A stretch of DNA of 64,000 nt from Eukaryota sp. GEM-RC1 (lineage: Eukaryota), in the NCBI GenBank assembly GCA_040285855.1, contig JAUFOQ010000010.1:1302001-1366000 (forward strand), in the 5' to 3' direction. The notes under the pieces were generated by a model. The model was not told where the DNA came from, did no database searches, and saw nothing but the letters and a program-made list of their open reading frames with translations. The first letter of the stretch is position 1; every line of letters starts with the position of its first letter. Of this stretch, positions 4,937-45,000 are shown one piece after another. Made by a program: the position numbers and the translations under genes.

Positions 4937-5440
4937 AGAAGAGATTTCGAGACCAATGTTAATGATACAAATGTGTAGTGCGGTTAAGGTTCTGTGTAAT
5001 AAGTGAAATTGTACAATAAGTTGTGGATTTAGACACTCTCTTTATGAATACATCTTTGTAGTAAAAGAAACTACTGTGGATTTCTCCAACAAAAATGTTT
5101 GAGGACATAAATAGTATCACGATAAATTTAGTTTCACTACATAAATACTATTTATTAAATAGTCTCAGTGAGACTAATTACCACTACTTTTTGGAATTGG
5201 GTTGTTCGTTAGATAATTTGTACTAATAGCTCTATTTGTTGGCAAAATTGGTGATTTTAATCATTCTTGAATACACTATTCTTATGCTTACAGCTAAATA
5301 CCATCAGTTTGTAATCTGTTTAAGCATGTGTATTTTGTTTCTGTCAGGAATACGCAATGTGTTTTCACCGTCTGACGGATCAACAATCATTGTTTCAGTG
5401 TAACGACAGGAAAACAAACGAAATGTATATTACTAAAATA

Positions 5441-5555
5441 CGACAGGAAGGAGGAGTCGAACCCCTGGGTTAAGCAACCTCTGGCGTAATACTTGCCATA
5501 GCAAGATGAGCCTCGAAGGCCACGCCATATGTCCACTGGGACACAACATCCCGTC
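5441..5555 (-). ncRNA. tRNA-Sec-scaffold RNA, copy 1 (anticodon arm replaced by a 49-nt branched domain)
   Basis: GACGGGATG/CTTCCTGTC 9-bp acceptor with U.U; GTGTCC-CAGT-GGACAT D arm; GGTT-GCTT-AACC variable arm; GGGG-TTCGACT-CCTC T arm; discriminator G; TATTTT follows. Confidence 0.8.
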
Positions 5556-5610
5556 AATAATGATTGACGGGATTGGTTAATGTCCATATAATTTGAAATG
5601 CCAATGTGGG

Positions 5611-11215: not shown

Positions 11216-11591
11216 AATTGCTGATAGTACTGGTCAGAGGATCTGTATATCTAATGCTAAATAGAAGACAGTTTTATAATCAATGTCTATTTTGGGAAGT
11301 TATAATTTGATTGATCAATATTTGTTATGATGTCTTGAAGCAATCTTTTGGTAATTCTTCTGATTTAATACATGAAATTCGTGTATTTTGTATCCAATGA
11401 GAGGAATAAATTAGTCCCTGTCATCGATTTCTTTTCCCCCAACAGATTTGTGATTTACGTCTTCAAAATAATATTTATTGTTCTAAAGTTTTTAGTATAT
11501 ATGTATAATGTGACTTTAATTGCAGTAAAAAATGAAGACCAACATTTTCTTTGAATTTTGACGGATTGCATATAAAAACTGACTGGATTGG

Positions 11592-17500: not shown

Positions 17501-19682
17501 GACAGATCTGCATTCAAGTCAACAGATTGTACATCTGCCTTGAAGAAAGATACTATGGATATGAGAAGACCAAGTTCAGAAGCAGAAATTGAGATGGTGT
17601 TGGAGTCACTGGTGACGTGGTGTTCACAATGAATATATCCAAGAGAAACGTCAATATAATGGGGAGAAATTTGAAAATTTGGTGATAATTTACCAGTAGA
17701 ATTCAGTTCAAAAATAGTGCAAAGATTGTCAAGCCCAATAGAATTATTACATACGGAGACATTTTTTAAATTAGCGTTAGACTGCAGTGCATCGATGAAT
17801 TTCAAAAAATGGTCATGAGATAGTTGCTTGTAAACAGCAGAATCATTATCTGAATGATATTCGGAAACACTGTAATTATCATAATCAAAATCATCATTAG
17901 ACTCATGGTCATGGGAAAAAACATCATCATTAGAATGAGAACAATAGAAATCATCGGAAAAATGTGAGAGTTCCTCAGACATTCTCATATTACTAAAGTC
18001 AACAGAAGTCAAGGAATTGTTGGCCCTAATGAGACCACACAAAACATCAATTGACTTACTGTCAATACAACTTCTTTGAAGAGTAAGTTCTTTGATACTA
18101 AATCTCTCTAGAAACGATTGAATGGATGAGACTTCTGCGGCAGAAACCTGAGTACAACAATAGGGAGAAAAACAAAAAATTCCATATTCAACATCTAGAA
18201 AGTGAGGAGAGACATCTACAATTGATCTTAGTTGTAGATAATCCAAAGTTTCATAGACAGTCATTAACGAAGTTAAATCTACAATCAAGTTGGGAAAACT
18301 AACTTTTTTAATTTGTGTGTTGATTTCAACTGCTTCAAGAATGTTTGGAAAGTCTGCAAAACTAAAAAGAGAACCATATAAACTTAATACAAGCAAACTG
18401 GTATTCCCCTCAATCATTTCAATTAGTGATTGGACCTGTTTGTTATTAAGTAAAATATCAGGCTTAAAAATAGACAATTCTAATAAAGATGAATTTGACT
18501 TCAGAAAATTATTAAAATATCTGAAACGACCACCAACAATCTGTAATTTTTTTAAAACAGTATTGTTGTTAATAACTTTACAAAGGTCATTGGTATCAAT
18601 ATAAGTTTCAATGATAGTTAGTTCTTGTAACGACAAATTACACTTAAGAGCCTCAATCACTGTAGAATCAAGACTGTAACATCTAGGAAACACCAGACTT
18701 CTGATACTAGACGTGTTTAGAAGAGGAACAAGAACACTTGAATCGTCTATAAAAATACCAGATAAATCTAATGATTTAAGTGAAGTATTACTGACTAAAA
18801 CAGTAAATAAAAGAAGCGAATCACCATTTCTAACAGATGATTGAGAAGAAAATGATGTGATTCTAATCTTTCTAAATGAATGCACTGAAAATGAAACAGT
18901 TCTGCTTAAAAACCCACAATGATATTAGTTAAATCTTCAACAATTAAATTTAACTCAACAATAGTGGAACTTAAAAGCAGAAATTCACAAAAGGTATGTA
19001 GCTGGGAGTTGTACTGATCGACAATATCAAGCCTTCTAAGCCGAGGTAGAAAAAGAGAAGAAGAGTAGCTGTCAAGTAAGTCGGTCAAATTGGGAACGTC
19101 ATCATTCAATGCTAGACCAGTAATTCTAAAAGTGTGGTCAATAGAAATGCCATCTAGAAACGTTGTCTCATCTAAAGTTAATAAAACAGATTGTACATCT
19201 GCATTGAAAAAAGATGATATTGAAGTAAGAAGAGAAAAATGAGAAGTAGAGAACGTGTTTGATTCTAAAAATACCATAACTCCAAGGAAAGCTGATTTAA
19301 AGAAACGTTGACTAACATAGCCAACTTTTTGGAAGAATGCAGGGAGTATTTCAATTGAATGGGGAAAGAACAGATCACGTGTAAAACGTGACTTCGAGAG
19401 ACATCTGAGACGATGAGAATTGATCAGAACTAGTAAAGATTGTGGAAGATGTATTGTCTTCGGATCAGTTATGTCCCCACAAGCAAGAGAACAAGAGATG
19501 GCGTCCGATACAAGATCCGGGGTGGAAATAAGAGAAGAAAGCATGATATTGCAAGAGTCACATGTACAAGAACCTTTCTGCCAATTTTTGAGACATTTCT
19601 GAGAACAAACATATCGACCACAACAGACAGCAATGACCTCAGTCAGATGGGCATTACAAACGGAGCAACATAGAGGTTGCAT
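11592..19682 (-). CDS. Giant LRR family gene B (~8.1 kb), chimeric; split into 7 ORFs by mostly homopolymer frameshifts
   Basis: Consecutive ORFs from MQPLCCSVC (19682) to GRIVFLTN* (11592) form one collinear LRR array; several breaks are 1-nt homopolymer differences relative to the duplicate in gene C. Confidence 0.8.
13403..17608. repeat. ~4.2-kb near-identical direct duplication (partner 23113-27322)
   Basis: Translations are identical; the DNA differences I found are homopolymer lengths. Confidence 0.9.
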
Positions 19683-19697
19683 TAAGAGAGAATTTGT

Positions 19698-21335
19698 CTT
19701 TCAGTACGTGAATTGAAATCACTCCCAAAACAAACTCAGGTCCAAAAATGTGAGATCCATATTACATGAACATGACTTGTGCTACATTATAGTACATGTA
19801 TCAGTATAAATCTTATCACTCACCCTTTTGTACTTCATCCTCTTAATTGCCACACTCCTATCAATGCTAATGTAAACATTGAAACTATTCATCTACCATC
19901 TTCTGATTCATCATGATCACGATCCTGTAGATTTTGCTGGAAACAAGAGTCAATCAGATCTTCTTAATGTTCTTCGTTATCTTCGTCGTCAATATCCTTT
20001 TAAGCTTGAACCTGTCTCACATGAACGAAACCTTCTCAAATTTCCGCCTCTTCGTACATTTCCCCTATCTCTGGTGTCATCCGTTGTGGGAAGTCTTCGC
20101 TATCTTTCCGCAACAGATACAGATGAAATTTCCCAACAACTGACATGCTGTTGTTTATAATGACTATCAGTTCTATCTATCACTCACCACTCATAGGCTG
20201 GTTGTTTCTCAGTCTGTTCCAATCTATATGGAACGTCGTTGTCAGGAGTCGTCTGGTAATTTCCAAAGTCGTACTGAATTCTATCATAATCTTCATTGGT
20301 AACAACATTCTGAAGATATTCTCTCGTAATGCTTATGTAATTGACCATTTCTTTAATCTGAATTTGTTTAATTTTTTGAGTTGTTTTTCAAATTACATCA
20401 AATAAGCATGTGAATGTGTCAAAACTGCATCTGTTTTTCAACAAAAATTTTGATTTATTTAAATCATGGATTGAAATCCAATTCATTGTTTTCAGCAAAT
20501 CCGAAATTTTGTTGTATTCTACGGTCGTTTTATTCAACAGTTTTCCAATATATTAATATCCAAATCAGCTAACAGAATTACATCGGCAAATGGTCTGAAC
20601 AAATCAGAAATTTGGCTTAATTAATACAAGGAAGAAACTCATGGGCCTCGACTCTATTCAAAATTTTGGGAATTTGTTTTTTTTTTGGCACCTTTCTAAT
20701 CATTGCAGAAAATCTCTGTGAAGAAGACTAATTACTCCCTCATTCTTCATTAAATCAGTGGTTGAAGAAGTAATAAACCTGGTGTCACCTGGAAAAAGTA
20801 ATTTATTCAGAAACGTTGATTGAACACATCACGAGAAGTCTTTTGTTTTCTTCAATGTCAATAAAACTATTCAATAAGATTGTTGACAGCAACAATTCGT
20901 TCTTGTACTTTCGATCAAGTATGATCTAATTTATGAGCAGCACAAGGAAGCTAGTTCACGACGTGCCACTCTTTTCTCTTGGAGACTGTAGTGCAGGTAC
21001 ATGCTTCATTGGTGCATTCAGATAAAACGTGTTTGACAATCGCACTATGCACACTTGGGAATACATCATGTGTTCATAAGTGATAGGTTTGGAACAAGAC
21101 ACCTTCTTTAGTGGTTCTGGATTTGCTGTGGTGACACTAACGAGTGTGATATCGCAGCTGCCACAGCATGTGTACAAGTTGGTAGAATTCGTCCGATTTG
21201 TTACATTAATGATATTCCACATGTAATTTGTTCTTTTTATAACATAATGTCTTGCAAAGTGGGAATGAGCTCTGCATTTAGGACAAATATTGAACGTGAA
21301 AAAGTATTTTTATTGACGTGTGACATAACTCTGAT
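19698..21335 (-). mobile_element. Triplicated module, copy 2 (decayed hAT transposase plus LRR upstream region)
   Basis: Homologous to 9546-11215; PCAAHKLD remnant; abuts the ATG of gene B. Confidence 0.75.
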
Positions 21336-21882
21336 TTCTAGTGGTATTTTTCATTGATTTCATTTTTGATTTGAGATTGTGTCTGTAATTCGTTGTATTT
21401 TTTGTTGGATCGTTTTTTCTGTTTTTTATGTATTGTATCAGATCACTGTAGTTATAACTATTAGATATTGTTCCAATCTCCTTAAGTTGAGACATGAATG
21501 TCACATGAGCCATTGTTGTTACTCTCCGTTGTTAATAATGTAATGAGGATCTGTATATATAATGCTAAATAGAAGACAGTTTTATAATCAATGTCTATTT
21601 GGGAAAGTTATAATTTGATTGATCAATATTTGTTATCATGTCTTGAAGCAATCTTTTGGCAATTCTTCTGATTTAATCGTGTATTTTGTATCCAATGAGA
21701 GGAATAAATTTGTCCATATCATCAATTTCTTTCCCCCCAACAGATTTAAGATTTCTTCAAAATAATGTTTGTTCTAAAGTGTATAGTATACATATATAAT
21801 GTGACTTGAATTGTAATAAAAAATGAAGACGAACATTTTCTTCGAATTTTGATGGATTGCATGCAAAAACTGACTGGATTGG

Positions 21883-24800
21883 CTAATTCGTTAGAAATAT
21901 AATGCGTCCATTTGAGATTGTTTTAATTTCTTTTCTAGTTCGTTCGTTAATACCATTATTTCCAAGATTAATACATTGAATTGTGGAATTCAACTTCAAT
22001 ATTTTTAAAATTTCTAGAGCACCTCTCCTACTAATAGAGTTACCCCAAAGGTCAATTTTAGAAAGAGTAGTATTTACTTTCAACAAATCAGCTAATGCCT
22101 TTACACTCAATTGTCTTCCAAACTTGAGGCCTCTAAAATTTAAAGAAGAAATATGTCTGTTGAATTCTATAATTCTTAATAAATCAGATTCATATAAATT
22201 ACAGTGAGATAAGTCAAGAGAAGTCAATGACGTACTGGTCCTGATTAAGTCACAAAACAATTCAAAAGCATCGTCAGTAAAACTACATTTGTGTATGCTA
22301 AGGTTTTTAATATCAAGACAACTTAATTCTGCGACATTCTCGCTATGAATTTCAGTGTAGTCTTGTGGTGAAAAGGAGAAAATATCTGATTTTGTGTCGA
22401 TAAAGTGAGGCGAAATATCAACATCTATCAATGAACTTTGAATGGAATAAATTTGAAAAGAACGACAAGACCATCAAAAATTAAATCTGCAATTCCATTA
22501 CATTCAACACGTTTTATCGGAACATTGGATTTTAAAGCATTTAAAAGTAACCCTAAATCAGTGTTGTTAATCTTGTCAGCGTAACTAATAATTCCACGAG
22601 AGAAATCAATAGAATGAGAAATAAAGTCAATGGTTGGTGACGATTGGTGGGTAGAAAATTGATTGAAAATATCCAAAAGATTATTGAATTCAATATGATT
22701 GTTACTGACATAAACTCTTTTCAAGCAAGAAATTGACTGAATGGTAGTGAGAAATTTAAGACTACTGGAATACGACAGACGACAGTGACTGAAGTCAATA
22801 GAAGTCAAAACATGACAAGTTCGTATGATGTCACACAATTCAGATATTCCAGCGTTAGATACATGACAATTTTTAAAAGTAAGTTCTCTAAAACTATATG
22901 ATTTACAAACACAATGTAGAGATGAAAGTTCTTGAGCTGATATTTGGGTAAAAGTTTCTGGTGAAAAGCGAAAAGCACCATTGTCAATATCTACAAAATG
23001 TGGAAAAACATCAACATCAATTACTGATTTGTTAATGGAAAGAATTTCAAATGAAGTAATAATTCCTCCTAAACTGAGATTTTTCAATCTACTAAATTCA
23101 ACACGTTTCATAGGAACATTGGATTTTAAAGCATTTAAAAGTAACCCTAAATCAGTGTTTTTAATCTTGTTATCGTATTGAATAATACCACGAGAAAAAT
23201 CAATAGAATGAGGAGACACATCAATATCAACAACTGATTTTTTTAATGAAAAGAATTTCAAATAAAGTAATAATTCCTTCAAAACTGAGAGTTTTCAATC
23301 CACGACAATCAACACGTTTAATAGGAACATTGGATTTTAAAGCACTTAAAAGTGTACATAAATCGGCAGTACCTACATGTGAGTCATAACAAATTGCGCC
23401 ATTAGAAAAATCACAAGAATGTGGAGAAAATTGAATATTTGAGGTTAATTTTCCAGCTGAAACTAAGTCAAAGATAGTCAGTAGACCCCTAAATCCAATT
23501 GAATGATTACTTAAATTGACGTTGTTTAATTTAGAGTTGGACTGCAGTGCATCGATTAATTTCAGGAAATATGCATGTATATAACAATCAGATAAGTCAA
23601 GAGAAGTCAATGACGTACTGGTCCTGATTAAGTCACAAAACGAGTCAAAAGCATCATCAACAAAATAACATTCGTGGATACCAAGGTTTTTGATATTAAG
23701 AGATTGTAAATCAGAGACAATCTCAGGGGTTATTTGAGTGTGGTCTTGTGGTGAAAAGTAGAAAATTCCAGATTCTGTGTCGATAAAATGAGGGGAAATA
23801 TCAACGTCTATCAATGAATTATTAATAGAATAAATTTGATGAATCGTAAGAAGAGTATCAAAATCTAAATCTGCAATTCCATTACTTTGAACACGTTTGA
23901 TCGGAACACTGGACTTTAAAGCATTTAAAAGTAACCGTAAGTCAGTGTTTGTAACCTTGTTATCGTAACTAATAATACCACGAGAAAAATCAATAGAATG
24001 AGGTAACACTTCAATTGTTGGTGGTGAGTGGTGAGTAGAAAACTGTTCGAAAACAGTCAAAAGAGTTTCAAACCCAATATCAAGGTTATTGACATTAACA
24101 TTATTCAAGTTAGTGTTGGACTGCAGTGCATTGAATAATTGCAAGAAATTGTCATGAGTCAGCTTGTTGTAAACAGATGAATCATCATCAAAGAAAACAT
24201 CAACACTAGAATGAGAGTATTCAAAATCGGATGAACAGCGAGAGAGTTGCTCCAACAATCTCATAGTACTGAAGTCAACAGAAGTCAATGAATGACAGGT
24301 CTTGATGATGTCACACAAAATAGAAATTCCAGTGTCACAAATGTGAAGTTTTTTAAGAGTAAGTTCAGTAAAACTACATGACTTCAACAAACAGTACAGA
24401 GATGAAAGTTCTTCAACTGATATTTGGGTAAAAGTTTCTGGTGAAAATCGAAAAACACCATTTTCAACATCTATACAATGAGGAGAAACATCAATATCAA
24501 CAACTGATTTGTTGATGGAAAGAATTTCAAATAAAGTAACAATTCCTTCAAAACTGACAGTTTTCAATCCACGACATTCAACACGTTTAATAGGAACATT
24601 TGATTTTAAAGCAGTTAAAAGTAACCGTAAATCAGTGTTATTAACCTTTTTAGCGTAACTAATAATACCACGACAAAAATCAATAGAATGAGGCAACACT
24701 TCAATAATTGGTGGTGATTGGTGAGGAGAAAACTGTTTAAAAATATCCAAAAGGGTATTGAACTCAATGTCATTGTGACTGAGATTGACTATTTTGAAAA

Positions 24801-27725
24801 AAGAATTTGATTGAATTGAATTGATTAATTCATGAATACTGATGTAAAGCAGACGACAGTGACTGAAGTCAACAGAAGTCAAAGAAGGATAAGTTCGGAT
24901 GATGTCACACAAAACAAGAATTGCAGTGTCAGAAATTTGACATTTGTTCAATGTAAGTTCCTTAAAACTATATGATTTCAACAAAGAATGTAGAGATGAA
25001 AGTTCTTGAGCTGATATTTTGGTAAAAGTTTCTGCTGAAAATCGAAAAACACCATTTTCAATATCTATACAATTAGGGAGAAACATCAGGATCAATCACT
25101 GATTTGTTAATGGAAAGAATTTCAAATAAACTAATAATTCCTTCCAAACTGTCATTTTTCCATCCACGACATTCAATACGTTTAATGGGAACATTTGATT
25201 TTAAAGCATTTAAAAGTGACACCAAGTCAGCACTGGTAACGTGATGTTCATAACGAATATAACCAAGAGAAGTATCAATAACATGGGGAGAACACTTTAT
25301 ATTCGGCAAGACTTCCTTCGTTAAACTTAGTTGAAAGATTTCCAAAAGATTATTTAAGTTAGTTCCGCAGTTGGAGATGTCTACCGTTTTTAAACAAGAA
25401 TTGGATTTGAAGGCACCGATTAATGAAAATACTTGTTCAGGAGACAAATTACAACAACTGAAGTCAACAGAAGTCAAGGAAATATTGAGCTTAAACAAAT
25501 CACTCAATTTAGTGATTGCGTCATTGGAAAAACGCCAATTGTTGAGGGAAAGTTCTTTGACATTAAAAACTTCCAAAAGAGTCTGTAAAGCTGAAACTTC
25601 TTCTACAGTTACCGGAATAGACTTATTTGGAGAAAAACCAACTATTCCATTATCCAAGTCAATACAATGACGGAAGCAATCAAAACTGATTACAGATTTG
25701 TTCAAGGAATGAATCTCCAGCAATGTTAAACATAATTTTAAACTTGGTCGTCTCAATCCTGGACAAACTACACGTTTGATAGGAACATTTGATTTTAAAG
25801 CTTCCAAAAGCAAGACTGAATCATCATCAGATAATCTTTTTCGATAATAAATAGTGCCAATCGAAAGGTCTACAAAATGAGGAGAAACTTCAAAGAATAT
25901 TGGTGATTGATGACTAGCAATACATTGAAAAATAAGTAAAAGTGTACTAAACTCCAAGCAAGAATTATTGAGAAGAACTCTTTTAAGTTAGAATTGAACT
26001 GAAGTGCTTGAATTATCAAGATGATGTTTTCAGATGATAATTGACAGCCACTAAAGTCAATAGAAATCAATGAATTATTGACCCTGATTAAATCACACAT
26101 ATAGATGGTTACATCATCAGTAAAACGACAATTGTTAAGAGTAAGCTCTTTGATACTAAAACACTCTACAAATGGCTGTAGAAGCGAGACTTCTTCGGAA
26201 GTCAAGCGAACACGTTCGTGGGGAGAGTAACAAAACACACATTTCTTAGTCTCGATAAAATAAGGAGAAATGTCGATCGTTGATCGTAGAGTAAGAAAAT
26301 TTAAATTTTCATACACAGTAATCAATGAAGTTAACTTTAATCGTATTCCAGGAATACTAACTTTTTGAAGAGTAGAATTGCCATCAAGTGCTTTGAGAAA
26401 AGTTTGCAATTGATGCACATTAAATAAAGAAGCACCCAAACTCAAAGAAACCAAGCCAGAAGTCATTTGAACCATTTTAATTAGTGACTTGGCAGGCTTA
26501 CCTTTGAGTTCCTGTCTAGGTGTAGAAACTGTAATTGATAAATCTAACAAAGAAGTGTTTGATTGAAGAAAATTATTATAATGTTGGAATTCACAATCAG
26601 AAATCTTCAGCTTTTTTAAGGATGTATTGCTCTTTAAAACCTGAAAAATCCCACCAGGATTAATAACAGAGTGGACAAAAGATACTTCTTGCAATGACAA
26701 ATTATACTTAAGAGCATCAATCACTGTAGAATCAAGACTTCGTCTACAACGAGGAAACACTAGACTTCGAAGACTAGACGTGTTTAGAAGAGGAACAAGA
26801 ACAATTGAATCGTCTGTAAAAATACCAGATAAATCTAATGATTTCAGTGAAGTATTATTAGCTATAGCAGTAAACAGAAGCATTGATTCATCAGTAGGGC
26901 TTATAGAACAAAATACAAGTTTAATCCTACTAAATGAATGAATTGAACGAAAAACCTCTGTTAGAGCAATCACTTTAGAACTCGTTAAATAGTCAACATT
27001 GATATTTAATTCAACAATAGTCGTGCTCAACAATAGAGCTTCACAAAAGGTAGTTAACTGAGATTCAAACCTTGTTGTAAAGTCAATGCATCTTAGTCTA
27101 GGTAAGAATAGAGGAGAAGAGCTGTCAAGTAAGTGGGTCAAATTGGTGACGTCATCACTAATTTCTAGACTGGTAATTCTTGAAGTGTGGTCAAGAAGTT
27201 CTTCAACTTCGAAAGACAGATCTGCATTCAAGTCAACAGATTGTACATCTGCCTTGAAGAAAGATACTATGGATATGAGAAGACCAAGTTCAGAAGCAGA
27301 AATTGAGATGGTGTTGGAGTCAAGATACACTCTAACTCCAAGGAAAGCTGATTTAAGGAAACGTTGACTAACATAGCCAACTTTTTGGAAAAATGCAGGG
27401 AGTATGTTTGTCAAGCGATGAAGAGACCGATCATGTGCAAGATCAGACTTCCAGAGATTGCTTACTAGATGAGAGCTTATCAGCACCAGTAAAGTCTGCT
27501 GACAATGAATATGTTTTGGATGAGCTACGTCCTCACAAGCAAGAGAGGAATAGACGGAGTCGGATACTAAATCGGGAATGGGAATAAGAGAACATTGCAT
27601 GATGTTAGAAAAGTGACACATACAAAAACTTTTCTACCAATCTTTGAGACATTTCTGAGAACAAACATATCGATCACAACAGACAGCGAAGCGATTAGTC
27701 ACATTGGCTTTGTAAATGATGCAAG
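21883..27725 (-). CDS. LRR family gene C (~5.8 kb); nonsense TAG in the N-terminal Zn finger; homopolymer frameshifts
   Basis: ORFs 25870-27621, 25073-25957, 23227-25095, 22428-23282 and 21883-22431 are collinear; upstream in-frame VCCDRYVCSQKCLKDW*KSFC. Confidence 0.8.
23113..27322. repeat. ~4.2-kb near-identical duplication (partner 13403-17608)
   Basis: Direct sequence comparison. Confidence 0.9.
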
Positions 27726-28620: not shown

Positions 28621-30073
28621 GTTTTCATATTCTGAGCCACTTTTTTACTATTTCATCGATCTTATTTTCATTTAGCATGCTGATGGTTTTAGTTCTGTGG
28701 ATCTAAGGAGATGGATCGAAATGGTAACTCAAAAATGAGTTCTTCATCATCAAGGTCTTCACTTTTTTCTGTCTGTCCCTTAAAGACTGCGATTTCAAAC
28801 AGCGAATATGGACTGTTTTGACTTTAACCAGATAAATAGTTTAGTGATCCAAACTTGGGAAACATTCATGAAAAACCGTTGGCTAAGTGAGCTGTTGTTT
28901 TTCCAGTGCATTGGAGGTAATCTGGAATACTTCAAAATGTTCGAACATTGTTTTCAGTTTCTGATCAACCAATATTTCGATCAGAAAATCTCTGTCAAAC
29001 TAAGAAAAAAACTGTTAAGTCTCATATTATGAGATGGGATTTAGATATGATGAAGCAAAAATATGTTTGAACTTCAAACATTGAAATATTCTGCTAGATA
29101 TGGCTTGTTGGCCATTGACAGCTATTCTGCCATACGCCGAACCGCGCATGGAAAATATATTTTTGTTATGTCGCAACACTGGTAAATTTAATTTTAATAC
29201 TAGTAATCAGGTAGGTATGTGAACACTCTTTCCTAACCTAGACATGAGCACTTGCTTTTAAACTCTGCACGACGCTTGCGATGCTTTGCTGCATTGTAAA
29301 CCTTTTCACCGATTCTTTCTATGTAATCAGTAAACCAGTTACAATGTTTTCGTCATGGGACTTCGGTAAAACGTGGTGATCATCACTTTACTTTTCGATC
29401 AGGTAGTCAACATCATTCTTAGATCCATATATGGTTCGTTTAAACTTCCATTTTACATTGCAAATATCCAGGGCTCTTCAAAACTGAAATGGCAATTCAT
29501 TGAAGTTGAAAAATAGTTCTTAATCAGTTTTTCCATCATTTCAACTCATTGTTCAACTGTTTGTCATTATACTTGACAAAAAAAAAGTTCAAAGTTGATC
29601 TTTTAGTTACTTTTTCTTGTACTTAGATAATATATACAATGTCCACTGTTCGTCCGAACTTTCATCGACGACATCTATAGACACATCTTTCAAAAGCAGT
29701 GATGTTCTTCAAATCACACACAAAATTAGCAAAAACGGGGTTTGTTTTTTAGCCGAGCTACGACCAATTTTAGAATGCAATCATTCATCAATATGTCGGA
29801 AGTTGATTTTGCAACTCAAGAGACCCAAAATATATTTTAATATAACTTCACTGGTAGAACTACAGTAGATGCGGGGAAACGTCATATCATGGCACCAAAT
29901 CTGAATCAAGTCAAGTGTCTGAAAGTGTGTGTCTGTTGTTTTAGACAGTAAAACTACTTGTGTATTGACAGCACAAACTGTATGGAAAAACAGCGTTCAT
30001 TAAAATATGATCGATATCGATTGTTTTAGTCTATTGGAAACAAAAAGCAAGATAAATGTTTGTGATCAAGAAA

Positions 30074-30201
30074 TGACGGGAAGGAGGAGTCGAACCTCTG
30101 GGTTATGGAACCTAGGATGACTGAGGTGCGCAAGTCGCGACTTAAAGGGAGATATCCCCTGAACGCCAGTCCATATGTCCACCAGGACACAGCATCCCAT
30201 C
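30074..30201 (-). ncRNA. tRNA-Sec-scaffold RNA, copy 2 (anticodon arm replaced by a 62-nt branched domain)
   Basis: GATGGGATG/CTTCCCGTC acceptor with U.U; GTGTCC-TGGT-GGACAT; GGTT-CCAT-AACC; GAGG-TTCGACT-CCTC; discriminator A; TTTCTT follows. Confidence 0.8.
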
Positions 30202-30514: not shown

Positions 30515-30733
30515 CTAATTCCTTAGAAATATTCTCCAGCCATTTGAGATTGTTGCCATTTTTCCCCCTAATTTCGTTAATACCGTTAAGCCCTAGATTG
30601 TTCTGTTCAATTGTAGAATGTAACTTTCTTGCCAATTTTTGAGACATTTCTGAGAACAAACATATCGATCACAACAGACAGCGATGACCTCAGTCAGGTG
30701 GGCATTGCAAACGGAGCAAGAGAGAGGTTGCAG
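30515..30733 (-). pseudogene. Collapsed LRR gene: Zn-finger start joined directly to the last LRR and stop
   Basis: 30626-30733 matches the gene B start (CSVCNAHLTEVIAVCC); 30515-30625 matches the gene B/C end. Confidence 0.8.
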
Positions 30734-30746
30734 AGGGAATTTGTCC

Positions 30747-32360
30747 AAAAACTCTTTCAGTACATGAGTTGAAACTGCTGGATCACTCCCAAAACAAACT
30801 CAGATCTAAAAATGTGAGAGCTTTATTACATGAACATGACTTGTGCTACAGTATAGTATATGTATCAGTATAACTCTTATCACTCACCCTAAAACTACTT
30901 TTTGTACTTCATCCTCTTAATTGCCACACTCCTATCAATGCTAATGTAAACATTGAAACTATTCATCTACCATCTTCTGAGTCATCATGATCACGATCCT
31001 ATAGATTTTGATGGAAACAAGAGTCAGATAGTTCTCATTTTCTTAATGTTCGTCGTTATCTTCGTCATCAATATTCTCTTCAGACTTGAAGCTATCTCAC
31101 ATGAAAGATTGCCCTCCGTCTCATACCTCCACATCTCTGTACATTTCCCCTATCTCTATCACAATCATTTTTGGGAAGTCTTCGCTATCTTCCCTTAAAA
31201 GATACAGATGAAATTTCCCAACAACTGAAATGCTGCCGTTTTTAATGACTATCAGTTCTATCTATCATTCACTTCTCATAGGTTGGTGGTTTCTCAGTCT
31301 GTTCCAATCTATGTGGATCGTCGTAGTCGGGAGTCTTCTGGTAATTTCCAAAGTCGTACTGGACTCTATCATTTCTTCATTGGTGACAACATTCTGAAGA
31401 TAGTCTCTCATAATGTTTATGTAATTGATCATTTCTTTAATCTGAATTTGTTTAATTTTTTGAGTTTTTTTTCAAATTACATCAAATGCGCAGTAACATG
31501 TGAATGGGTCAAAAAAACATCTATTTTTCAACAAAATTTTTGATTTATTTAAATCATGGATTGAAATCCAATTCATTGTTTCCAGCAAATCCGAAATTTT
31601 GTTGGATTTTGCGGCCGTTCTATTCAACAGTTTTCCAATATATTAATACCCAAATCAGCTAACAGAACTACATCGGCAAAAAAAACGGCTTTATGTGCGG
31701 AGAAAAACACACAACAATAAAACAACAAATAAATGGTCTCGGCAAATGATATGAACAAATCACAAATTTGGATAGTCATGGGCCTCGTCTCTATTCAAAA
31801 TTTCGGGAATGTTCATCATTTTTGGCATCTTTCTAATCATTGACAGAAAACATATGTGAAGAAGAGTAATTATTACCTCATTCTTACATTAAATCAAGAA
31901 GTATAAAAGCTGATTTCACCTGGGAAAAGTATTTTTCAGAACCGTTGATTAAACACATAACCAGAAGTCTTTTGTTTTCAAAAGTTAGCAAAAGTTAATA
32001 AGATTGTTGACAGTAATAATTCGTTCTTGTACATTCGATCAAGTGAGATCTAATGTATGAGCAGCACAAGGAAGCCAGTTCACGACGACGTGCCGTTCTT
32101 TCTTCATTGGAGAGTTTGCTGCATGTACTTGTATCATCGGTGCTTTCAGATAATAATTGCTGCCAATCCTTCTCACACTTGGGAATACCTCATGTGGTCA
32201 TATATGATAGGTTTGGAACAAGACACCTTCTTTAGTGGCTCTGGATTCGCTGTGGGGAGTCTCACTACTGTTGTGTTTCAATCTACTGGACCAATTGGAT
32301 GTATCATGGATAGAGGTTTGCTTGTTTTTAGATAGCCAATGATTCTTATTATACAATTCC
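30747..32360 (-). mobile_element. Triplicated module, copy 3 (decayed hAT transposase)
   Basis: NWLPCAAHTLD remnant; homologous to copies 1 and 2. Confidence 0.75.
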
Positions 32361-33159: not shown

Positions 33160-33281
33160 TGTTAGCACAGCAAGTGTCAACACGTGTTCTAGTAGTGAAC
33201 TGTAGCATTATTTTACTTAGATTACTCTCTCCCCTTATAAAGGTACCGTCCTTTTCACTTTCAGCCTTAAACAAGGCATCA
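33160..33281 (+). repeat. 5' LTR (122 bp)
   Basis: tgttagcacag...aaggcatca; 3 C/T differences versus the 3' LTR. Confidence 0.95.
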
Positions 33282-33322
33282 ATAGCTATTGGCCGTACAA
33301 TAAGGCCTATCTAACCTCAAGT

Positions 33323-34877
33323 ATGTCAACTAAACCCCAAACTTCACTTCCAGCATCACACCTTCTTGCTGACCAGGTACGCTTCGTAGCACCGAAGCTG
33401 TCCTCCCTCTCTACGAATGCCGTCGCCCGCTTCGTCCAGGAAGTCTCTCACTTCCTCCAGGCCTCCGAGCCTGACCAATCCCAAAGTATTCCTTTGACAG
33501 AACCAACTGTGTTTCCTTCCCTCTCCGCTTCCATTCCTTCAGCTGCTGAACGCTTAGCTGAAGTCGAACAAATGATCCATGCCGCCTTAAGAGAATCGCA
33601 CCCTGAGGGTTTTGACCCTGAAACCTTTGCCGCCTACTGGTCCGCCGCCAAGAAAGTCACAATTGCCGCCAACCCCCCTTCTCCTAAACCCTCTTCAGAA
33701 ACCTCTATGCCCAAGTTCCTCAAAGATGATGCGGAGGCTCTAAAACGCAACTTAAAGTCCTCTTAGTTATCTCACTCCTCTTCCTCCCCTCATCAGCTTG
33801 ATGACTGGGATGGCCCTTCATTTTTCGATGACCCTCCTGTTCCTGAAGGCTTTTATCGCATTATCCTCCCAAATATACTCAGCCTAATACGTATTATGTG
33901 TCCAACCGCCCTTTCTAGCCAGGAGAACCTGTGGATTTATCTACTATCCACCATAGCCGCCAAAGACGCCTCAGAAGCAAGAAGATTGCTGAATTCACTC
34001 TCAATGAAAACCCCAGGCCGAGAACCCCTTACATTCTACATCCTAGATCTCCAGAAAGCTGCCCAGAGATGCAAGAACTTGCTGAACACCTCCAGGCCGA
34101 AACCTCTAATGGAAAGCTTCATTCAAGGCCTCAAACCCTACACTTTAAAAACCAAACTGATGGACGAGTTCAAGATGAACCTCATTCAGGACATCGATTC
34201 GCTAATCTCCAGAACGATCGCGCTCAATGAAACTATAGCTCCAGAAGAAACGAACCCCAAATTCCGCAATCATCAAAGAAGAAATGATTTTAGAAACACT
34301 AACTCCAACTTTGGAACCAGAACTCCCTATCCAAATTCCAACCTCCGAAATAAAGAACCAGCCGGCGAAAAGAACAGCTGCTCTTTCTGTAAGAAAGACG
34401 GCCACGTTATCGAAGACTGCTTCGATAAGTCGTGTAAGAAGTCGAAACATTATGATCCATCGGCCCCGCAAACGAAGAAGCCGTACTCAAATCCAAGGCT
34501 TCCAAGACCAACCTTTGGCAATGCTAAGAGATCAACCAGAAGCTCTAAAAATAATTTTGTCGCTTCCAGAGAGCAATGCTCTGAAAGTCTCCACTCTACC
34601 ACCATCTCAGACGACGAACCCATAGAGTTCGAGCTAGAACTCCCATTTATCAAACACTTTCCTTTTGATAAACCCAAGAATGTCAATGCCCAAAGCCTCT
34701 GCCGAAACAATGGATGATCCTCTCCCAGTGAGTGTTCCGCAGGAATTAAGCTCTTCCTTAAAGGAATTGAGCCGAATAACAGGATCGGGTTTCGACCCTT
34801 TTCTACCTGTGAGAGATACGCCACAACGGGATGGTGACTCCAAAGTTAACGCAGTTGCCAAAGCTACCGAAGGTTAA
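33323..34877 (+). pseudogene. gag: gag region (interrupted), with CCHC knuckle
   Basis: FIQGLKP motif; CSFCKKDGHVIEDC. Confidence 0.8.
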
Positions 34878-34879
34878 TC

Positions 34880-37800
34880 AAATCAAGAACCCTCCAAACT
34901 CTTATCTCTTAAAGTCCTTGTAAACAACACTCCCTTCGAAGCATGCCTGTGAAACCTCCTGCTTCTCCGAAGATATCGCTAAAAAAGCCGGATGCCAAAT
35001 CGTCGCTAGTAGATTTAAATTCACTCTAGCCAATGGAACAAACATCCAATCTCCTGGAACAGCCAACGGTATACTGAGCTTCGAATTCGACCGGATTCTC
35101 TCTCCGTTGGTACACCTGAAATGCCAGATCCCAATTATACCAGGAGTAAACCAATTCCTAATTGGATGTGACTTATTGTCAAGCCTCGGCCTACTTAAAG
35201 CAAACTCACTGATGATCAACTTGAACAAAGAACATTCAAAGATCACAGGAGCCGAAGCCACCCTGGACCACCTAATGGTCGACACACCTAGGAAAGGCCT
35301 CGTCGCTTCAACGTCCACAACTTTAGACGTATCAGAAAGTAGAATCGAGCTTCCCGAAGAAACCGAAGAGAAATTGCTGAAAATTCTAAACAAACACAAA
35401 GATGTGTTCGGAAAACCCCATCCCGAAGGCATAAAATGTAAACCAATGACTATCCCGTTTTTACAACGAGGGCACAACCTGCAAGAAAGCCCCAAGAAAC
35501 CTAAACCCTACTAAATTGAGAATCGCCAACGAGATCTTTGATGACCTCATCGAAGACGGATTCGCCGAAGAAACCTCGACTGAGTCTAAATTTAGCTCTC
35601 CAATCGTCTTGGTAATCTACCCTGACGGTAAAAAACCCAGATTAACAGGGAGACTACTCAGGAACTGGAGGTGTGAACGCTTCCACCAAGCCGATTGAAG
35701 CCAATCTACCCAAGATATCAGACGTATCTATCTTCCTCTCAAATGCCAACTTCATTTGCACACTAGACCTCCCGAAAGCATTTTGGCAAGTTCCGCTAGA
35801 CCAAGCAGACTACCAGAAAACTACACTAAGCATCCCAGGCCGTTCAATATTCTTCAAAAGAGCCGCCTTCGGACTAAAGAACGTGCCTGCGTTCTTCCAG
35901 AACTTGATGCAAGACATCTTCTCCATGCCTAATGTCTTTATTTACATGGACGATGTAATCATCGCTGCTTGCACAGAAGAAGAACTGCTTTCCACGTTAG
36001 ATGCCATACTAACGAAAGCAGTCGAACAGCTCGCACACGAACTGCTTCCCTAACCATCAAGAATCTAATTTGTAACGCCTGCAATCTAGCTCTTCCCGAC
36101 GGAAACGCAAAAATTGTAATCTCAACAGACGCCTCTGACAAAGCTATCAGCGGAGTAGTTTGGAAGAAGCTCGACAAGACCCCTACGACCTCTCCGCTAG
36201 AAGATCAAAAATTAGAACCAATCAGCTTCTTCTCGAAGACCTTGACGGATAGCCAAATGAACTGGCCAATAATGCAGAAGGAACTTTTCGCGATAATCTG
36301 TACCCTGAACCAGCCCGCCATGGCCAACTTCTTGATGACACGACAGCTAACGATTTTCTGCGACCACAAGAACATCGTTTACCTGATTAACCAGCCAGAA
36401 CGAAATCGGATCGTAACCCGCTGGATTCCCCTACTTTCTAACTTCTCTTTCGAAATCATCCACGTCGAAGGTCCAAACAACGTATTCGCCGACCTCCTTT
36501 CACGTCTCACGCCCGCTAACCCCAGTTTAGAATCAGAATTACCTGAAACTTCAACATGCTTTAGCTTATTTTCAGTAGAACTCTACGAGACTGAATACTA
36601 CTTTGAAGAAACCCCAACAAAGACCGAATGCCCCAAGTGTGGAGAACGCATGCCCTACTTAACCATGCCCGACCACATACCCTGTGAAGGCCCATACTTC
36701 GCATGCAGAAACTGCCTCAACAAACTACAACCCCACGAAGTCTACAACGATGATGAACGCAGAGCCCTGCTTCACTTGTATCCGAAAGAAGACACGCCTA
36801 TCAAAGACTACTGCGGCATCTTCCAGCTAGACAAAGCAGGCCCTCGGAAATACATTGAACGTAGAGACGACCACATCAAGGAATTATGCTTCCGCTTCGT
36901 AAAGCACAAAGGTCTCATCAGAAGTCTAGAAAAGAAGAACTCTTCACTAAGGAAACTAGTAGAACCCCCTGCCAAAATCAAAATAATTGAACCAGAATCG
37001 AAAATTCCATGTGGCCATTGCAACCACGGAACCACCGACTTGGAACTATGTGCCAGCCACCACCAAGTAACAACATATCAAGAACGACTGGTCTGCCACA
37101 GTTGCAAGAAATATACAACCGACCAGATGCTGACAGAAGCCAAAGATAAACTAAAGAAAAGAAAAACCAAAAACTCCCACGAGAAGCTCCTATCGTACGA
37201 CGGTACAGGCTCGTATTCGTAGACGCCCTTACGAGATACACCATCTTATGTCCCTCAGACAAAATCTCCGCTACAAACTCAGCATACTGTCTTATCAACG
37301 CGGTGTGCGCCAACGTCGGCATACCCGACATGATCCACTCAGATAATGGACCCGAGTTTTGTAACGCCACCTTTAAAGCATTATGTGCCTTTCTGAACAT
37401 AACTAACTCCTTTTCGCTCCCTCACCACCATCAAAGTAATGGTCTGGTTGAGCGAAGAAATCGAGAAATCAACCAAACTCTGAAGAGATTTCTCCTAGAC
37501 TTAAACGACTTCCAAAACTGGTCGACTCAACTACCTATAGTACAGTTGATGATCAACAATCAACGCCACTCAGTTACCAGATGTACTCCATGGGAACTAA
37601 TGTTTGGATCTCCAATCGACCCTAGAAAACCTGCATCAGATCTACTGGAAAACTAACATCCAAACCACTACAAGAAACAGGCAACGTGTTTGTCAATGCC
37701 CTCGCTGCAAGAACAACCTACTTAAAAGGAAAGTGGGAAGAAGCAGCCAAGAACCAGCAAAGTCATCTGGACAAACTTAGACCCAACTCAAAACCGGTCA

Positions 37801-38195
37801 AGAACCCCTTTGTCGTTGGTGACCTCGTACTTCGAAAGAATGACCAACCTCAGCGCCTGCACGGCTCATGGTTAGGCCCTTTCCAAGTGCTAGAAAGCTC
37901 TCCCGACTCCACGAAAGTTAAAATTCTAAACTTCGTCTCAGGTAACGAACTCACAACCTCCAGCTTGCTCCTTCGCCTATTCTTGGCCCACTCATCCAAC
38001 AAGGAGTATCTGACCGCCATCGCCGCTATGGACCAGCAAGAGTCTATACTTGTGAAGGTGCATGACTTTGATCACAGATCTAACAGAGCCCATGTAGAAT
38101 GGATAGACGGCTCTACATCTATGGAACCTCTCGATGAAATCCGCAAGACCACCGCATGGTCCAAGGCCAAGCACCTCCACGATGTTCCCCTTTGA
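34880..38195 (+). pseudogene. pol: pol region: decayed protease, RT, RNase H, Cys-rich insert, partial integrase, chromo-like tail
   Basis: FLIGCDLL; LDLPKAFWQV, AFGLKNVP, YMDD; TDASD..ELFAII..CDHKN..NVFADLLSR; HSDNGPEF..SNGLVERRN; WLGPF; frameshifts and deletions. Confidence 0.9.
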
Positions 38196-38245
38196 AAACA
38201 CTCGCTGTTCTTAAAGCCATGAGAAGCTTCAAGAAAGAAGAGCAT

Positions 38246-38367
38246 TGTTAGCACAGCAAGTGTTAACACGTGTTCTAGTAGTGAACTGTAGCATTATTTT
38301 ACTTAGATTATTCTCTCCCCTTATAAAGGTACCGTTCTTTTCACTTTCAGCCTTAAACAAGGCATCA
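38246..38367 (+). repeat. 3' LTR (122 bp)
   Basis: Direct repeat of 33160-33281, followed by CTAC. Confidence 0.95.
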
Positions 38368-39409
38368 CTACATGTAACAAGTAATTTTTTTGAATGAATG
38401 GACAAACGGGTTTATATTTTTCACATGATATTACCAACATGGTCTTTTAACTCATCACAATCTGCGAGGTAAATTGGTGGTCCATGTGGCACCAGTAACT
38501 TACCTATAAGAAAGCTGACACTATCTTAATAAATTTCAGCTGCTATCTTCAGCAGATTTGTTTATCAGGACATTTCAGTTATGTTTTTTATGGAAGTGTA
38601 TTTGAAGTTGAGGTCATAACATTAACCACCCAGTAGTTACCCGGATGTGCTTCCAAACACTGATTGTGGTACAACTTACTAGGATATGTCTCATAAGTGG
38701 ACATTGCAAACCTTCAACTAACTCACTGGTTTGTCTATTTCCCTGAGACTAAATTCCTGATGAGACTTATTCACACAGTGACAGTAATTGTAATCAAACC
38801 GTAACATTGCTTATTACTAGTACAATTGATTGAGAAAAGCCATTGATGGTTAGGTATACCATTTCTTCAATGACGTTTATAAACCATAGTACATTAAAGC
38901 AAAGCTGTAGACAATTGACGGTGATCAATTTTTCAAGGATCTCGAAGAACTGTGTAAAGAAAAGATGCGTAAGTTCAGAATGGCTGGATGGAAAAACCGT
39001 ATTGTGTTTTTCATGTATCGGAATATGTCTTTCTATTTCTCTGGATTAGTTGAAAAACCGTACAAATTTTATGTGAAGGTTAATGTTGAAAAACATAATC
39101 TTTTACCGGATAGCCATGTATTGTAATACCAACTCTTCCCATACATATGTTTAGTACAACTCATAATAACTTCTTTGGACCCATAAACCTGTGTAGAAGT
39201 GTGTGAATTGATGTCAACAAGCTGAGAGGTCAAAGATTATTCAAGAAAAAGGCAAAACTGGCGATGTACCAACACCAAGCCGAAATTATCAAATAGAACA
39301 GTTTACCTTCCCATAGTTCATGTTTAAATAGTCCCAAAATTAAACAATTTTATACAACAATACAAACAAATTCTCAAAGAAACAAGGCTTAAACTGTAGT
39401 GGTGATGAT

Positions 39410-41189: not shown

Positions 41190-42023
41190 TACTGTAACTC
41201 ATTTTCAATCTTGAATTCCCAGAATTGGATCATCCTAACAACATTATTTGAGAGTTGTTTATTGTGATATAGCACTATCACAAAATCAATATTTGTTAAA
41301 TTTGTTTCAAATTGAAACGTCGGGAAAAGTTGAAAGTACTTGTATTGGTATGTGTTGCGCAAGTAAAATTTGATTTACTCTGTCTGTCAATTCTCAGCCC
41401 TGATAATCTAGACCCTATTTTTCAAATATTTGTTCTGCTACGTTCCGATGGCTCAGCTACTTTCATACCTATTTCAAACAAATCGAACCAATGTTGATCA
41501 AATGTATCTGAACTCTTTGAATGTCCATAGATGCTGTTCATTTGATGAAAGTCTACGTACAGAAAACATTATGGCTGAGCTAATACAGCTTGAACATTTG
41601 AACGTATATAACGCACTAAGTTTCTTGATCGAGAAGAAACGAGAAGAGGATGATGTCGTTATCAATAGAAACACTTACTGTACAAGTACTACAGTACTTG
41701 TAGTGCAGAGGTTGCTCCAGCCAAAACTGAAGCATCACGCAATGTGAGTTCCAGTTCAACAAAAACCCTGAGACAAAATGATGACAACAACATGTATGTA
41801 ACAAATAAATGTATAAGGAATATGTGGGGACCCATTGAAACCCTGAGATCAGGAAACATGATGTATCAGGATATGGTCAAGATGTCATTATCAAAACAAG
41901 TGAGGGAGAAAGCCAGCTGAAATAAGCTAGGATGACGCCTTCAAGGGCATCCGTCAACCAATTCAGCCATTATAGAGAGAAAGATTGAACAGTTTTCGAC
42001 AATTAATCGTGTATCTACAGTCA

Positions 42024-45000
42024 ATGTTTGTCACTGAACCTCCACTAAAGACAAGTCGTTCTCCGAATGGTACTCTATCTACTGATTTAGCCAATGACTC
42101 CTCCAGTGTCTCTAACTCACAATCATCTCTAGACTTAACCACTTTTTTGTCAGGTGACAGTCATTCTGTAAGCAAGCATATACGCCTCCAGCAATCTCTA
42201 TTGATACTGATAGACTTCCATCTACTGAAACGTGTCATGAAATCTTCCAAAACAGCAAATCTTCGACCTTCCCAGCGTTTAGCCAAATGGTTGTCCTCCC
42301 CTTACTCCCATTCCCAGAATGTTGCATTGGTGAGCCAGCATTTCCTAAATTCTCTATTATCCGCTTTCAGAGTGTTTCTTCAAACCACTATTCTTCCTAT
42401 AACACGGGAAGACCTTCCACGACTTGCTTCAATCAACGCCTACTTTCAAACACAAGTAAAGTATGTGTCTCTGCATGTGCACCGCTCCTTTGACGTTCTA
42501 GATCTCCTTGAGTTTACTCCAATAATCTCAAACTTATCAGTTAATGATTTGACTCACCTACATCAACTTCTTGACCCTTCTTCTTCTTTTATTATAGCTG
42601 CACTTGCAAACAATTCAGTTATTCAAACAGTTGATTTTTCTGAACTTCGCATCCATACTCCAAGTGTTCTTGAACCACTCATGAGCAGTTCTAGTATTAA
42701 AAGCATTGTGTTTCCTCACAATTTTGATTTTGATTCTTCAGTAATTAATTCCATCAATGAAAATTCAGCAATTACAACAGTTTGTCTTAAAAAAACTGAG
42801 TGTACTTCTCCAAGTGTATATTCCTCAATTGCTAATTTAATTAAATTTGACAATTCTTTAAAAAAGATGGTTCTAGACGTGTGTAAATGTTATTTACCTT
42901 CCATTTTTGAATCTTTGGGAACAAATACTTCGTTGTTAGAGCTGATTCTTCATTCATACGGTTGTGGCTGTAAAATCGAAGGCCTTCGTAATGAGCAATC
43001 GTTGTTCAGGATGATACAGCGGAATACAAGTTTACTTGTCCTAAGTCTTGGAGGTTCAATTTTTGATTCATTCCTGTTAAGTGCCGCCATGAGGGCACTT
43101 AAAAGTAGATCGTCGTCACTTAAAATTGTTTGTTTGTCGGATTTACAGTTCAAATCAGTTGTCCTGTCATACAATATATTATCGGCCTCAAATTCAATAA
43201 TGTCACGTATTCAACTTCATCCTCATTATTTTGATGTATTGCATGGATTTTTACACTTTGACAATACGATCAATAATTGTGATCTTGTGCACATTTTAGA
43301 GGCACTAAAGTCAAATGTTCGGTTTGAAAGAATCACTTGTCAAGGATTGAGAAGTCCCAGTATGAACGGCATTATTACTTTATTCAAAATTCTTTCTATT
43401 AAGAGGACAGTGATTGAGCTGGATATCTCCCCCAGCTTACTTGATATTGAAAGTCGCGTGTTCTGTTATTCGCCCACAAATTTTGTCAGTTTAACTCGAA
43501 ATAATATCACGTCATTACAGCGTTTTGTGAATCGATTTGCTATTAAAGTGCTGACCATTAAAAATTGTTGTTTTGATGACCAATCAATAGATGCTTTGTC
43601 TGGTTTAATTAGGACCAATAATTCATTGACTTCTATCAACTTCAGGTTTCCGATACTCTCGAACACTGATTTTGCGCTACTATTTGGTGCAATTCTATAT
43701 AATTCTAGTTTACGTAAGGTAGTTGTGAACTCATGTTCCTCCAAAAGTCATAATCTTTGGACTATTGTCGAATGTGAATGTTGTAACATGTCACTTCCAA
43801 CCAAGATCTCAGTCAATCAATCAAATGAATTCGGTTGTTTGGTGAGAACTTTTGGTCAACTTTTAGCTCGCAAGTCAATTGATATTATTGAAATGTTTGA
43901 TCATTCAATTAATGTTGGTTGTGGCTACATTCGTTTCAGCAATACAATTAACTGCACTGATTTAGCAGTGTTATTAGAGGCTTTAAACTCAGGAGTCCCT
44001 ATTAAACGTGTTGATTGTCTTGGATTGAGGACTTCAAGTTTAGAAGAAATTATTACGTTTTTCCTGATTCGTTCTATTAACAGCACAATGCTTGGCTATG
44101 ATATTTCGCCGAATCGTCTTGATATCGAATCTGGGGCATTTTGCTATTCTCCAGAAAGGCAGACCCGGATCACCTCCAAAGACGTCTCACGTCTACAACA
44201 GTCTTTTCTTTCTTTTAAGTTCTTTCGTAGCAAAGAACTTACACTAAAGAGGTGTGCGTTTTTAGGAGAAACATTCGATGCATTGTGTCATTTTATTAAT
44301 GCAAATAATTCATTGACTTCTGTTAACTTCAGTGAGTGCATACCATGTGATGACAGTTCATATACGTCACATCACCAGACTGGTACAAGTTTCACAAAAT
44401 TCATCAGTAAACTTCACTACAATTCGAATTTAAAGAAAGTTGTTCTCAAAGATTGCAACATTGGACTATGCATTCTCTTAACAATTCTTGAACTAAACTC
44501 ATCTGGAAATGAAACACAGAAGTTTAATGTATCTCCTCATAGTATTGACTTTAAGAATGGTTCGTTTTGCTTTTCGCCAGAGCATCTTACTAAAATAACC
44601 ATCAATCAAATTTCATCTCTAAATTATTTTATCCAAAGCAGCGGGTTCAAAAATCTAACTTTAAGAGGATGTCGTTTTACTGAAACTACCATTAATGTTT
44701 TGTGTGATTTACTCAATCTCAACAATTCATTGACTTCTGTTGACTTCAGCCATTGTGATCTTTCTGATCAAGCTTTCTCTCAATTGATATCTGCCCTTAA
44801 GTTAAATTCCTCCTCAAAACTATCAAGAATTTGTATGATTCGAAATTCTATTGGATCGGGAGGAGCATTCGCATTGTCTGAATTATTAAAAGGAAACACT
44901 GTGATTAAGGAGATCTACATATTTGGAAACACTATTGATGATGATGGTGTAATTGCATTAGCTGAGGCATTGTCAGTAAATTCAACACTTACTCGAATCG

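Follow-up and report, generated by a model that had tools for sequence, protein, structure and literature searches.

A pair of tRNA-Sec-shaped genes with an expanded anticodon arm in Eukaryota sp. GEM-RC1, tentatively read as non-decoding mimics of tRNA-Sec

The gene at positions 30074..30201 combines a body shaped like that of tRNA-Sec with an anticodon arm of 62 nt, and a second gene of this kind lies on the same strand, 25 kb away. According to the excerpted text of PMC5330540, tRNA-Sec usually exists as one decoding gene, and additional copies of it either work as tRNAs or are broken pseudogenes. The locus raises the question of whether such a pair decodes, decays, moves as a mobile element, carries a selected insert or has been retained for something other than decoding.

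Both ARAGORN and Rfam at its cut-off call nothing in the window, that is, in the whole 64-kb stretch of DNA that was analysed, so the gene pair escapes standard annotation. At a loose threshold, the top Rfam match is tRNA-Sec (RF01852) at 30075-30201, with 34.5 bits and an E value of 3.6e-05. A BLAST comparison finds a sole partner on the same strand (5442-5555), scoring 33 bits on this model, and both copies are below its gathering cut-off of 47 bits. On its own, the score is unspecific: RF01852 also gives 31.8-46.5 bits to phage tRNAs from four loci. The diagnostic feature is the anatomy (9/4 fold, 6-bp D stem, and 4-nt D loop). These phage tRNAs (L074:237-323, L047, L050, and L054; 32-46 bits on Rfam tRNA-Sec) have a 4-bp T stem, and by eye the one in L074 joins an 8-bp acceptor to a 6-bp D stem, being allo-tRNA-like. 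ARAGORN with lowered thresholds produces Ser and Pro calls, which were discarded because the same option yields 29 calls over the window.

Profile and covariance searches detect no third copy in the window, leaving two copies in the 64 kb. The collections searched for more distant relatives are mostly prokaryotic or viral, so that absence there is no evidence of absence. In them, the D-arm pattern has no viral matches and 28 metagenome loci, 0/28 with a T arm. The T-arm pattern matches 18 loci in prokaryotes and 28 in viruses, all of which lack the 5' half. Of these 74 loci, a phage tRNA scores highest on the model, with 35.3 bits, where the two training copies score 134-153. Also, a pattern spanning the arm returns 77 viral loci, none of them scoring on the model. 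The features of the two copies are the following.

30074..30201, minus strand: copy 2, complete tRNA-Sec-shaped gene, 128 nt including the discriminator (Rfam RF01852 and fold)
30193..30201, minus strand: copy 2 acceptor stem, 5' strand, 9 nt, pairing with 30075-30083 with one U.U mismatch
30175..30190, minus strand: copy 2 D arm, 6-bp stem (a 7th pair is possible) and 4-nt loop UGGU
30179-30189, minus strand: copy 2 A-box-like motif inside the D arm
30113..30174, minus strand: copy 2 expanded anticodon arm, 62 nt
30101..30112, minus strand: copy 2 variable arm, 4 bp and a tetraloop
30075..30098, minus strand: copy 2 T arm (4 bp, 7-nt loop) and acceptor 3' strand
30086-30096, minus strand: copy 2 B box
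30074, minus strand: copy 2 discriminator, A73, against G73 of tRNA-Sec
30009..30073, minus strand: copy 2 3' trailer, AT-rich, homologous to the copy 1 trailer
30042-30046, minus strand: T5 run in the copy 2 trailer, a possible Pol III stop
5441..5555, minus strand: copy 1, tRNA-Sec-shaped gene, 115 nt, with G73
5480-5528, minus strand: copy 1 anticodon arm, 49 nt
5378..5440, minus strand: copy 1 3' trailer, with T4 runs at +3 and +27
5548..5573, no strand: perfect 11-bp inverted repeat with a 4-nt spacer, spanning the copy 1 5' boundary

In both copies, 13 nt separate the T loop from the discriminator, giving a 9-bp acceptor with one U.U and a 4-bp T stem. Both therefore share a 13-bp 9/4 acceptor/T domain, along with a 6-bp D stem, a 4-nt D loop, and a 4-bp variable arm, which is shorter than in the Rfam consensus. 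As described in the excerpted text of PMC7609411, a 13-bp acceptor plus T domain and a D arm of 6 bp and 4 nt are marks of eukaryotic and archaeal tRNA-Sec. The D loop of copy 2 (UGGU) equals the RF01852 family consensus and contains G18/G19, which are not present in the D loop of copy 1 (CAGU, with A18), G18 and G73 being among the tRNA-Sec invariants (PMC5330540, excerpt). Given the anticodon arm, the lack of G73 in copy 2, and scores below the Rfam cut-off, the gene pair is tRNA-Sec-shaped and yet not a member of that family. Judged by the usual box consensus, the B box is perfect in both copies, and each also has an A-box-like motif and T runs downstream. The anticodon arm of copy 2 consists, in order, of a closing stem, a relic U-UCA-G (UCA at 30160-30162), and about 36 nt of intron-like sequence. 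The initial annotation had given 62 nt between the D stem and the variable stem of this copy and a TTCA lying about 4 nt too distal, and both values are correct; the displacement of the UUC-purine-purine relic by 4 nt is, however, common to both copies and not confined to copy 2, the relic of copy 1 reading U-UCG-A. As a separate observation made by eye, the terminal acceptor bases and discriminator of copy 1 (10 nt) recur about 35 nt downstream, at 5405-5414 in its trailer, and copy 2 has no such repeat.

A comparison of the two 66-nt scaffolds confirms the nine differences counted earlier, 3 of them at the 44 paired and 6 at the 22 unpaired sites, and the claim that those in stems preserve pairing, with 22/22 pairs intact in both copies. 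Three pairs carry a one-sided change and none a two-sided one, that is, no compensatory change is seen, and the chance of three pair-keeping changes alone is 0.006-0.05, which is a weak test taken singly. The shared 3' trailer offers another measure if it is assumed to be neutral; weak constraint on it is possible, and the copies would then be older still. Paired scaffold sites differ at 3/44 positions against 23/63 in the trailer (p 0.0004), and the insert differs at 12/32 sites, at a rate like that of the trailer (p 1.0) and unlike that of the scaffold (p 0.01). The distance between the copies is 0.07 at paired sites and 0.15 over the scaffold, compared with 0.52 in the insert and 0.50 in the trailer (Jukes-Cantor for the last two). 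With the trailer taken as neutral, one neutral lineage since the duplication would be expected to show 7-9 pair breaks, and none is observed (P ~0.001-0.0001). Selection on structure, as originally proposed, is thus upheld for the scaffold, by the absence of broken pairs and by the difference between paired sites and trailer. This supports a tRNA-Sec body under selection in both copies, and, as judged from these two sequences, the pair consists of real, selected genes derived from tRNA-Sec.

The same annotation had assigned to copy 2 a different payload of the same topology. The first 32 columns of the inserts align ungapped with 20/32 identical, which does not support a different payload, and the score of the global insert alignment is matched by only 68/5000 shuffles. 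As for the topology, both minimum-energy folds do consist of a closing stem and two hairpins, but this is only mildly unusual against shuffles. With the closing stem forced, shuffled interiors are as stable in 1102/3000 cases for copy 1 and 1237/3000 for copy 2, and two hairpins appear by chance in 227/3000 and 622/3000, respectively. The arm of copy 1 is well defined, with pair probabilities mostly >0.9. The closing stem of copy 2 reaches a pair probability of ~0.55, and the individual helices that had been named for this copy are not recovered, the GGGG/CTCC hairpin having a pair probability of at most 0.02, with a shifted hairpin at the same site at 0.56-0.91, and AAGT/ACTT and GCGT/GCGC ~0.05 each. 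RNAalifold on both copies keeps the four scaffold helices and gives no common closing stem and one 3-bp hairpin in the insert. An extra TGG/CCA helix was also considered and rejected, its probability being 0. Moreover, a search for complementarity between the inserts and the rest of the window reveals no excess, 87/100 and 36/100 shuffles matching equally well.

A common excisable intron that yields a standard tRNA had been named as the counter-case, and among the single excisions no such intron is found (0/41 per copy, for products of standard length with a stem of at least 4 pairs, U33, and a purine at 37). Two introns of at least 11 nt each give 0/8590 for copy 2 and 65/3390 for copy 1, none of the latter with UCA, and a 6-bp anticodon stem with a 7-nt loop containing U33-UCA is reached in neither copy, unspliced or spliced. 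Cutting at the fixed distance from the body that the ruler rule prescribes yields loops with G33. One register, among the four relaxed ones listed per copy, is common to both: a TGGC/GYCA stem that encloses N-U-UCA-G-A in copy 2 and, in copy 1, C-U-UCG-A-C, once 36 nt (copy 2) or 26 nt (copy 1) are removed after position 37, and with a connector of 5 nt against the normal 1 nt. The spliced forms close the 7-nt loop with probabilities of 0.00 and 0.13. Also, the bulge-helix splice structure is absent, the central helix pairing at 2/4 sites in all four cases tested. We read the TGGC/GYCA register as a putative relic of an intron-bearing tRNA-Sec, shifted by ~4 extra nt.

The flanks had been described as otherwise unrelated. 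This is correct upstream, where four blocks are at background, but not downstream, where the first 65 nt are homologous. The trailers are identical at 40/63 positions, with a score of 12 against -9.0 +/- 4.4, reached by 1/3000 GC-matched window segments (self-overlap not excluded) and by 0/3000 shuffles, and three downstream blocks beyond them are at background. Homology between the copies starts no more than ~6 nt from the 5' end of the tRNA and extends into a non-tRNA tail. The copies were also said to stand apart from the segmental duplications, and both indeed lie outside those of the LRR arrays. A conserved hairpin in the trailer was rejected (z 0.11 and -0.38, no consensus pairs), as was an origin of the trailer from a LINE 3' end, there being no similarity to the two local retrotransposon ends tested. 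The inverted repeat at 5548-5573 is the sole perfect one of at least 11 bp with a spacer of at most 10 nt in the 64 kb, and it is likely a fold-back scar from the duplication junction. If part of a transcribed leader, this repeat could compete with the copy 1 acceptor stem.

Regarding the surroundings, the domain content marks the window as eukaryotic, with LRR arrays, genes for a kinase and a RING/B-box protein, and transposon domains of the Ty3/gypsy, DUF659, and DDE_3 types. For two proteins encoded in the window, the nearest paralogues that carry a species name are from Eukaryota sp. GEM-RC1. The LRR gene arrays are large and partly broken (1-2581, 11592-27633, 41976-46200, and 57484-60101), with recent, near-identical segmental duplications at an offset of ~9.7 kb. 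A block of ~1.6 kb is present three times with 81-88% identity (9546-11236, 19558-21353, and 30607-32271), and part of it resembles the DUF659 transposon region at 50977-51622, reversed. Fragments of a multi-copy non-LTR retrotransposon, a relative of which has RVT_1, are located at 3440-4924, 5660-6330, and 8727-9668 (plus strand); they presumably contain C-terminal zinc-knuckle and restriction-like endonuclease motifs. One 5'-truncated non-LTR copy with an A-rich end lies in head-to-head orientation to copy 1, starting ~100 nt upstream of it, an arrangement reminiscent of tRNA-targeted elements such as TRE5 of Dictyostelium, although it is a single case and may be due to chance. A Ty3/gypsy element lies at 33160-38370 (plus strand), with 125-nt LTRs that are 97% identical and two same-frame ORFs at 33221-34717 split by one TAG. 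The copies were considered as its primer tRNA and rejected, because by eye the sequence after the 5' LTR matches neither 3' end.

A constant tRNA scaffold bearing selected, interchangeable structured payloads, such as guide or aptamer domains, was the initial proposal; it would fit the shared minimum-energy topology and the well-defined arm of copy 1, but it is now highly improbable, because the inserts are homologous and diverge at the trailer rate, are no more stable than shuffles, have no closing stem or hairpin pair in common by alignment, and show no excess complementarity within the window. Likewise, with hairpins that are not positional homologues and only two copies found, a diversified family of constant-scaffold, variable-domain RNAs is not supported. 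The homologous inserts and their common register, with its 4/5 stem, U33, UC-purine, and purine 37, would rather suit working intron-containing Sec-type tRNAs, with the intron one base past the anticodon and a long connector, reading UGA (copy 2) or CGA (copy 1). A conserved body with a fast insert is the usual exon/intron pattern, and intron-bearing tRNA-Sec is known in Daphnia pulex and Lokiarchaeota (PMC5330540, excerpt). Nonetheless, working splicing is quite unlikely: the product would have 10 nt between D stem and loop, where 6 is standard, its 7-nt loop hardly closes, copy 2 has A73 and G32 and copy 1 has A18 and UCG, and of all stems in the pair the anticodon stem is conserved least, whereas in real tRNA-Sec it is conserved most, according to the excerpted literature. 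The half-paired central helix and the outcome of the excisions, with no standard-length product from one intron and never UCA from two, point the same way.

Two further explanations were weighed. tRNA-derived SINEs have a tRNA head with A and B boxes and a short AT-rich tail. A family of SINE-like retroposons, whose head derives from tRNA-Sec and whose tail is 65 nt long, mobilised by the non-LTR retrotransposons of this genome, would account for a head with A-like and B boxes, homology that starts at the tRNA 5' end and runs into a short AT-rich non-tRNA tail, and two copies in 64 kb with unrelated outer flanks, and non-LTR fragments that are multi-copy in Eukaryota sp. GEM-RC1 flank copy 1. 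However, the target-site duplications or tails that had been suggested as signs of a SINE are lacking (the longest common word of 6 nt is equalled by 1063/1500 and 1055/1500 random pairs, and there is no A tail), T4/T5 runs interrupt the tail, which is unlike the two local retrotransposon ends tested, no third copy is present in the window, and conservation is strongly uneven, the body being far above the tail. Such a family is therefore unlikely, as is its corollary that the head is conserved because active source genes need Pol III boxes and the tRNA fold. The other explanation is that these are dead or dying tRNA-Sec copies whose apparent conservation stems from recent loss, chance, or gene conversion. 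A different invariant is lost in each copy (A73 in copy 2; A18, together with UCG, in copy 1), the surroundings are rich in decayed repeats, and tRNA-Sec copies without G73 are usually pseudogenes (PMC5330540, excerpt). Yet, the known tRNA-Sec pseudogenes of the same excerpt have broken acceptor pairs, whereas all pairs are intact here although insert and trailer are ~0.5 substitutions/site apart, and the decoding defect is older than the split. Decay is thus decidedly unlikely.

The best reading, preferred tentatively, is a non-decoding RNA derived from tRNA-Sec that would engage the Ser/Sec enzymes, either as a decoy or as a side substrate, a role that we purely infer. The 4-nt misregister is common to both copies and hence older than the duplication, and conservation of the body after this shared decoding defect points to a function for which the anticodon is dispensable and the acceptor, D, T, and variable arms are required. 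According to the excerpted review, SerRS reads the variable arm and G73, PSTK reads the D arm and the 13-bp domain, and no Sec enzyme binds the anticodon arm (PMC7609411). The arms conserved here are those that the Sec enzymes read. On the other hand, an invariant of tRNA-Sec is missing from each copy, position 73 being A in copy 2 and position 18 being A in copy 1, which resembles decay.

In this non-decoding scenario, an intron-bearing tRNA-Sec gene would have gained ~4 nt on the 5' side of the anticodon stem, for which a TGG motif present twice can be cited, and anticodon and splice sites would have been put out of register. A DNA piece of ~190 nt would then have been duplicated, and selection would have kept the body only. 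The genes would be transcribed by Pol III from the internal boxes, cut at the ends by RNase P and RNase Z, and provided with CCA, and their product would be bound by SerRS, PSTK, SepSecS, or eEFSec. Copy 1, with G73, would be chargeable with serine, and copy 2, with A73, would stay uncharged. Pol III transcription and tRNA-type end processing of both copies are likely, as predicted from the boxes and T runs.

Eukaryota sp. GEM-RC1 is treated in a genome paper as a skoliomonad metamonad (10.1101/2023.05.03.539051), and, as far as the excerpted sources go, other metamonads, namely Spironucleus and Preaxostyla, possess the Sec pathway. The words 'tRNA' and 'seleno' are absent from the main text of the genome paper (10.1101/2023.05.03.539051), and its searchable supplements contain one unrelated 'tRNA' and no 'seleno'. 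In a crude check, the stop codons that end 30 long ORFs of the window (TGA 14, TAA 9, and TAG 7) give no hint of UGA reassignment. A more doubtful extension of the non-decoding reading, though conceivable, is that tRNA-Sec gave rise to a family of RNAs without a decoding function, in which the parts recognised by SerRS, PSTK, SepSecS, and eEFSec are retained and the anticodon is not, with G73 versions that are charged and A73 versions that are not, acting outside translation as a carrier of serine, phosphoserine, or Sec or as a regulator, possibly even after loss of the selenoproteins.

Finally, the pair can be compared with known systems. With eukaryotic and archaeal tRNA-Sec (RF01852), it shares the 13-bp 9/4 fold, the acceptor U.U, a D stem of 6-7 bp with a 4-nt loop, and the variable arm, and also U55, C61, and C66 (PMC5330540 and PMC7609411, excerpts). 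It differs in the anticodon arm of 49 or 62 nt against ~19, in UCA/UCG 4 nt out of register, in A73 (copy 2) and A18 (copy 1), and in scores below the Rfam cut-off for both copies. The intron-bearing tRNA-Sec of Daphnia pulex and Lokiarchaeota, as excerpted in PMC5330540, likewise occurs in two copies with a conserved body and a variable insert after U-U-C-purine-purine; their intron, however, is at the expected place, G73 is present in both copies, and two sites distinguish the mature tRNAs, whereas here no single excision yields a standard arm. Bacterial allo-tRNA and selC* tRNA-Cys (PMC7609411, excerpt) also put a Sec-like body to non-Sec use, some of them being non-translating, but they are bacterial and have a 12-bp domain (8/4 or 9/3) and a normal anticodon loop, while the present genes belong to a eukaryote. 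An allo-tRNA identity is ruled out by the 13-bp domain found here against the 12 bp of the definition. Non-decoding tRNA-shaped RNAs are also known in bacteria, according to the excerpted literature, and among protists the sRNA-76/sRNA-85 of the trypanosomatid SRP are tRNA-shaped RNAs with a non-decoding job, although the excerpted text of PMC2800229 describes for them neither a Sec-type body nor an enlarged arm. In the literature covered, which leaves out most subscription journals, no Sec-type, non-decoding, tRNA-shaped RNA was found in a eukaryote. If the non-decoding reading is true, a selected Sec body without a decoding arm would be a third fate of tRNA-Sec copies, and the pair would offer a direct test for RNA partners of the Sec enzymes outside translation.
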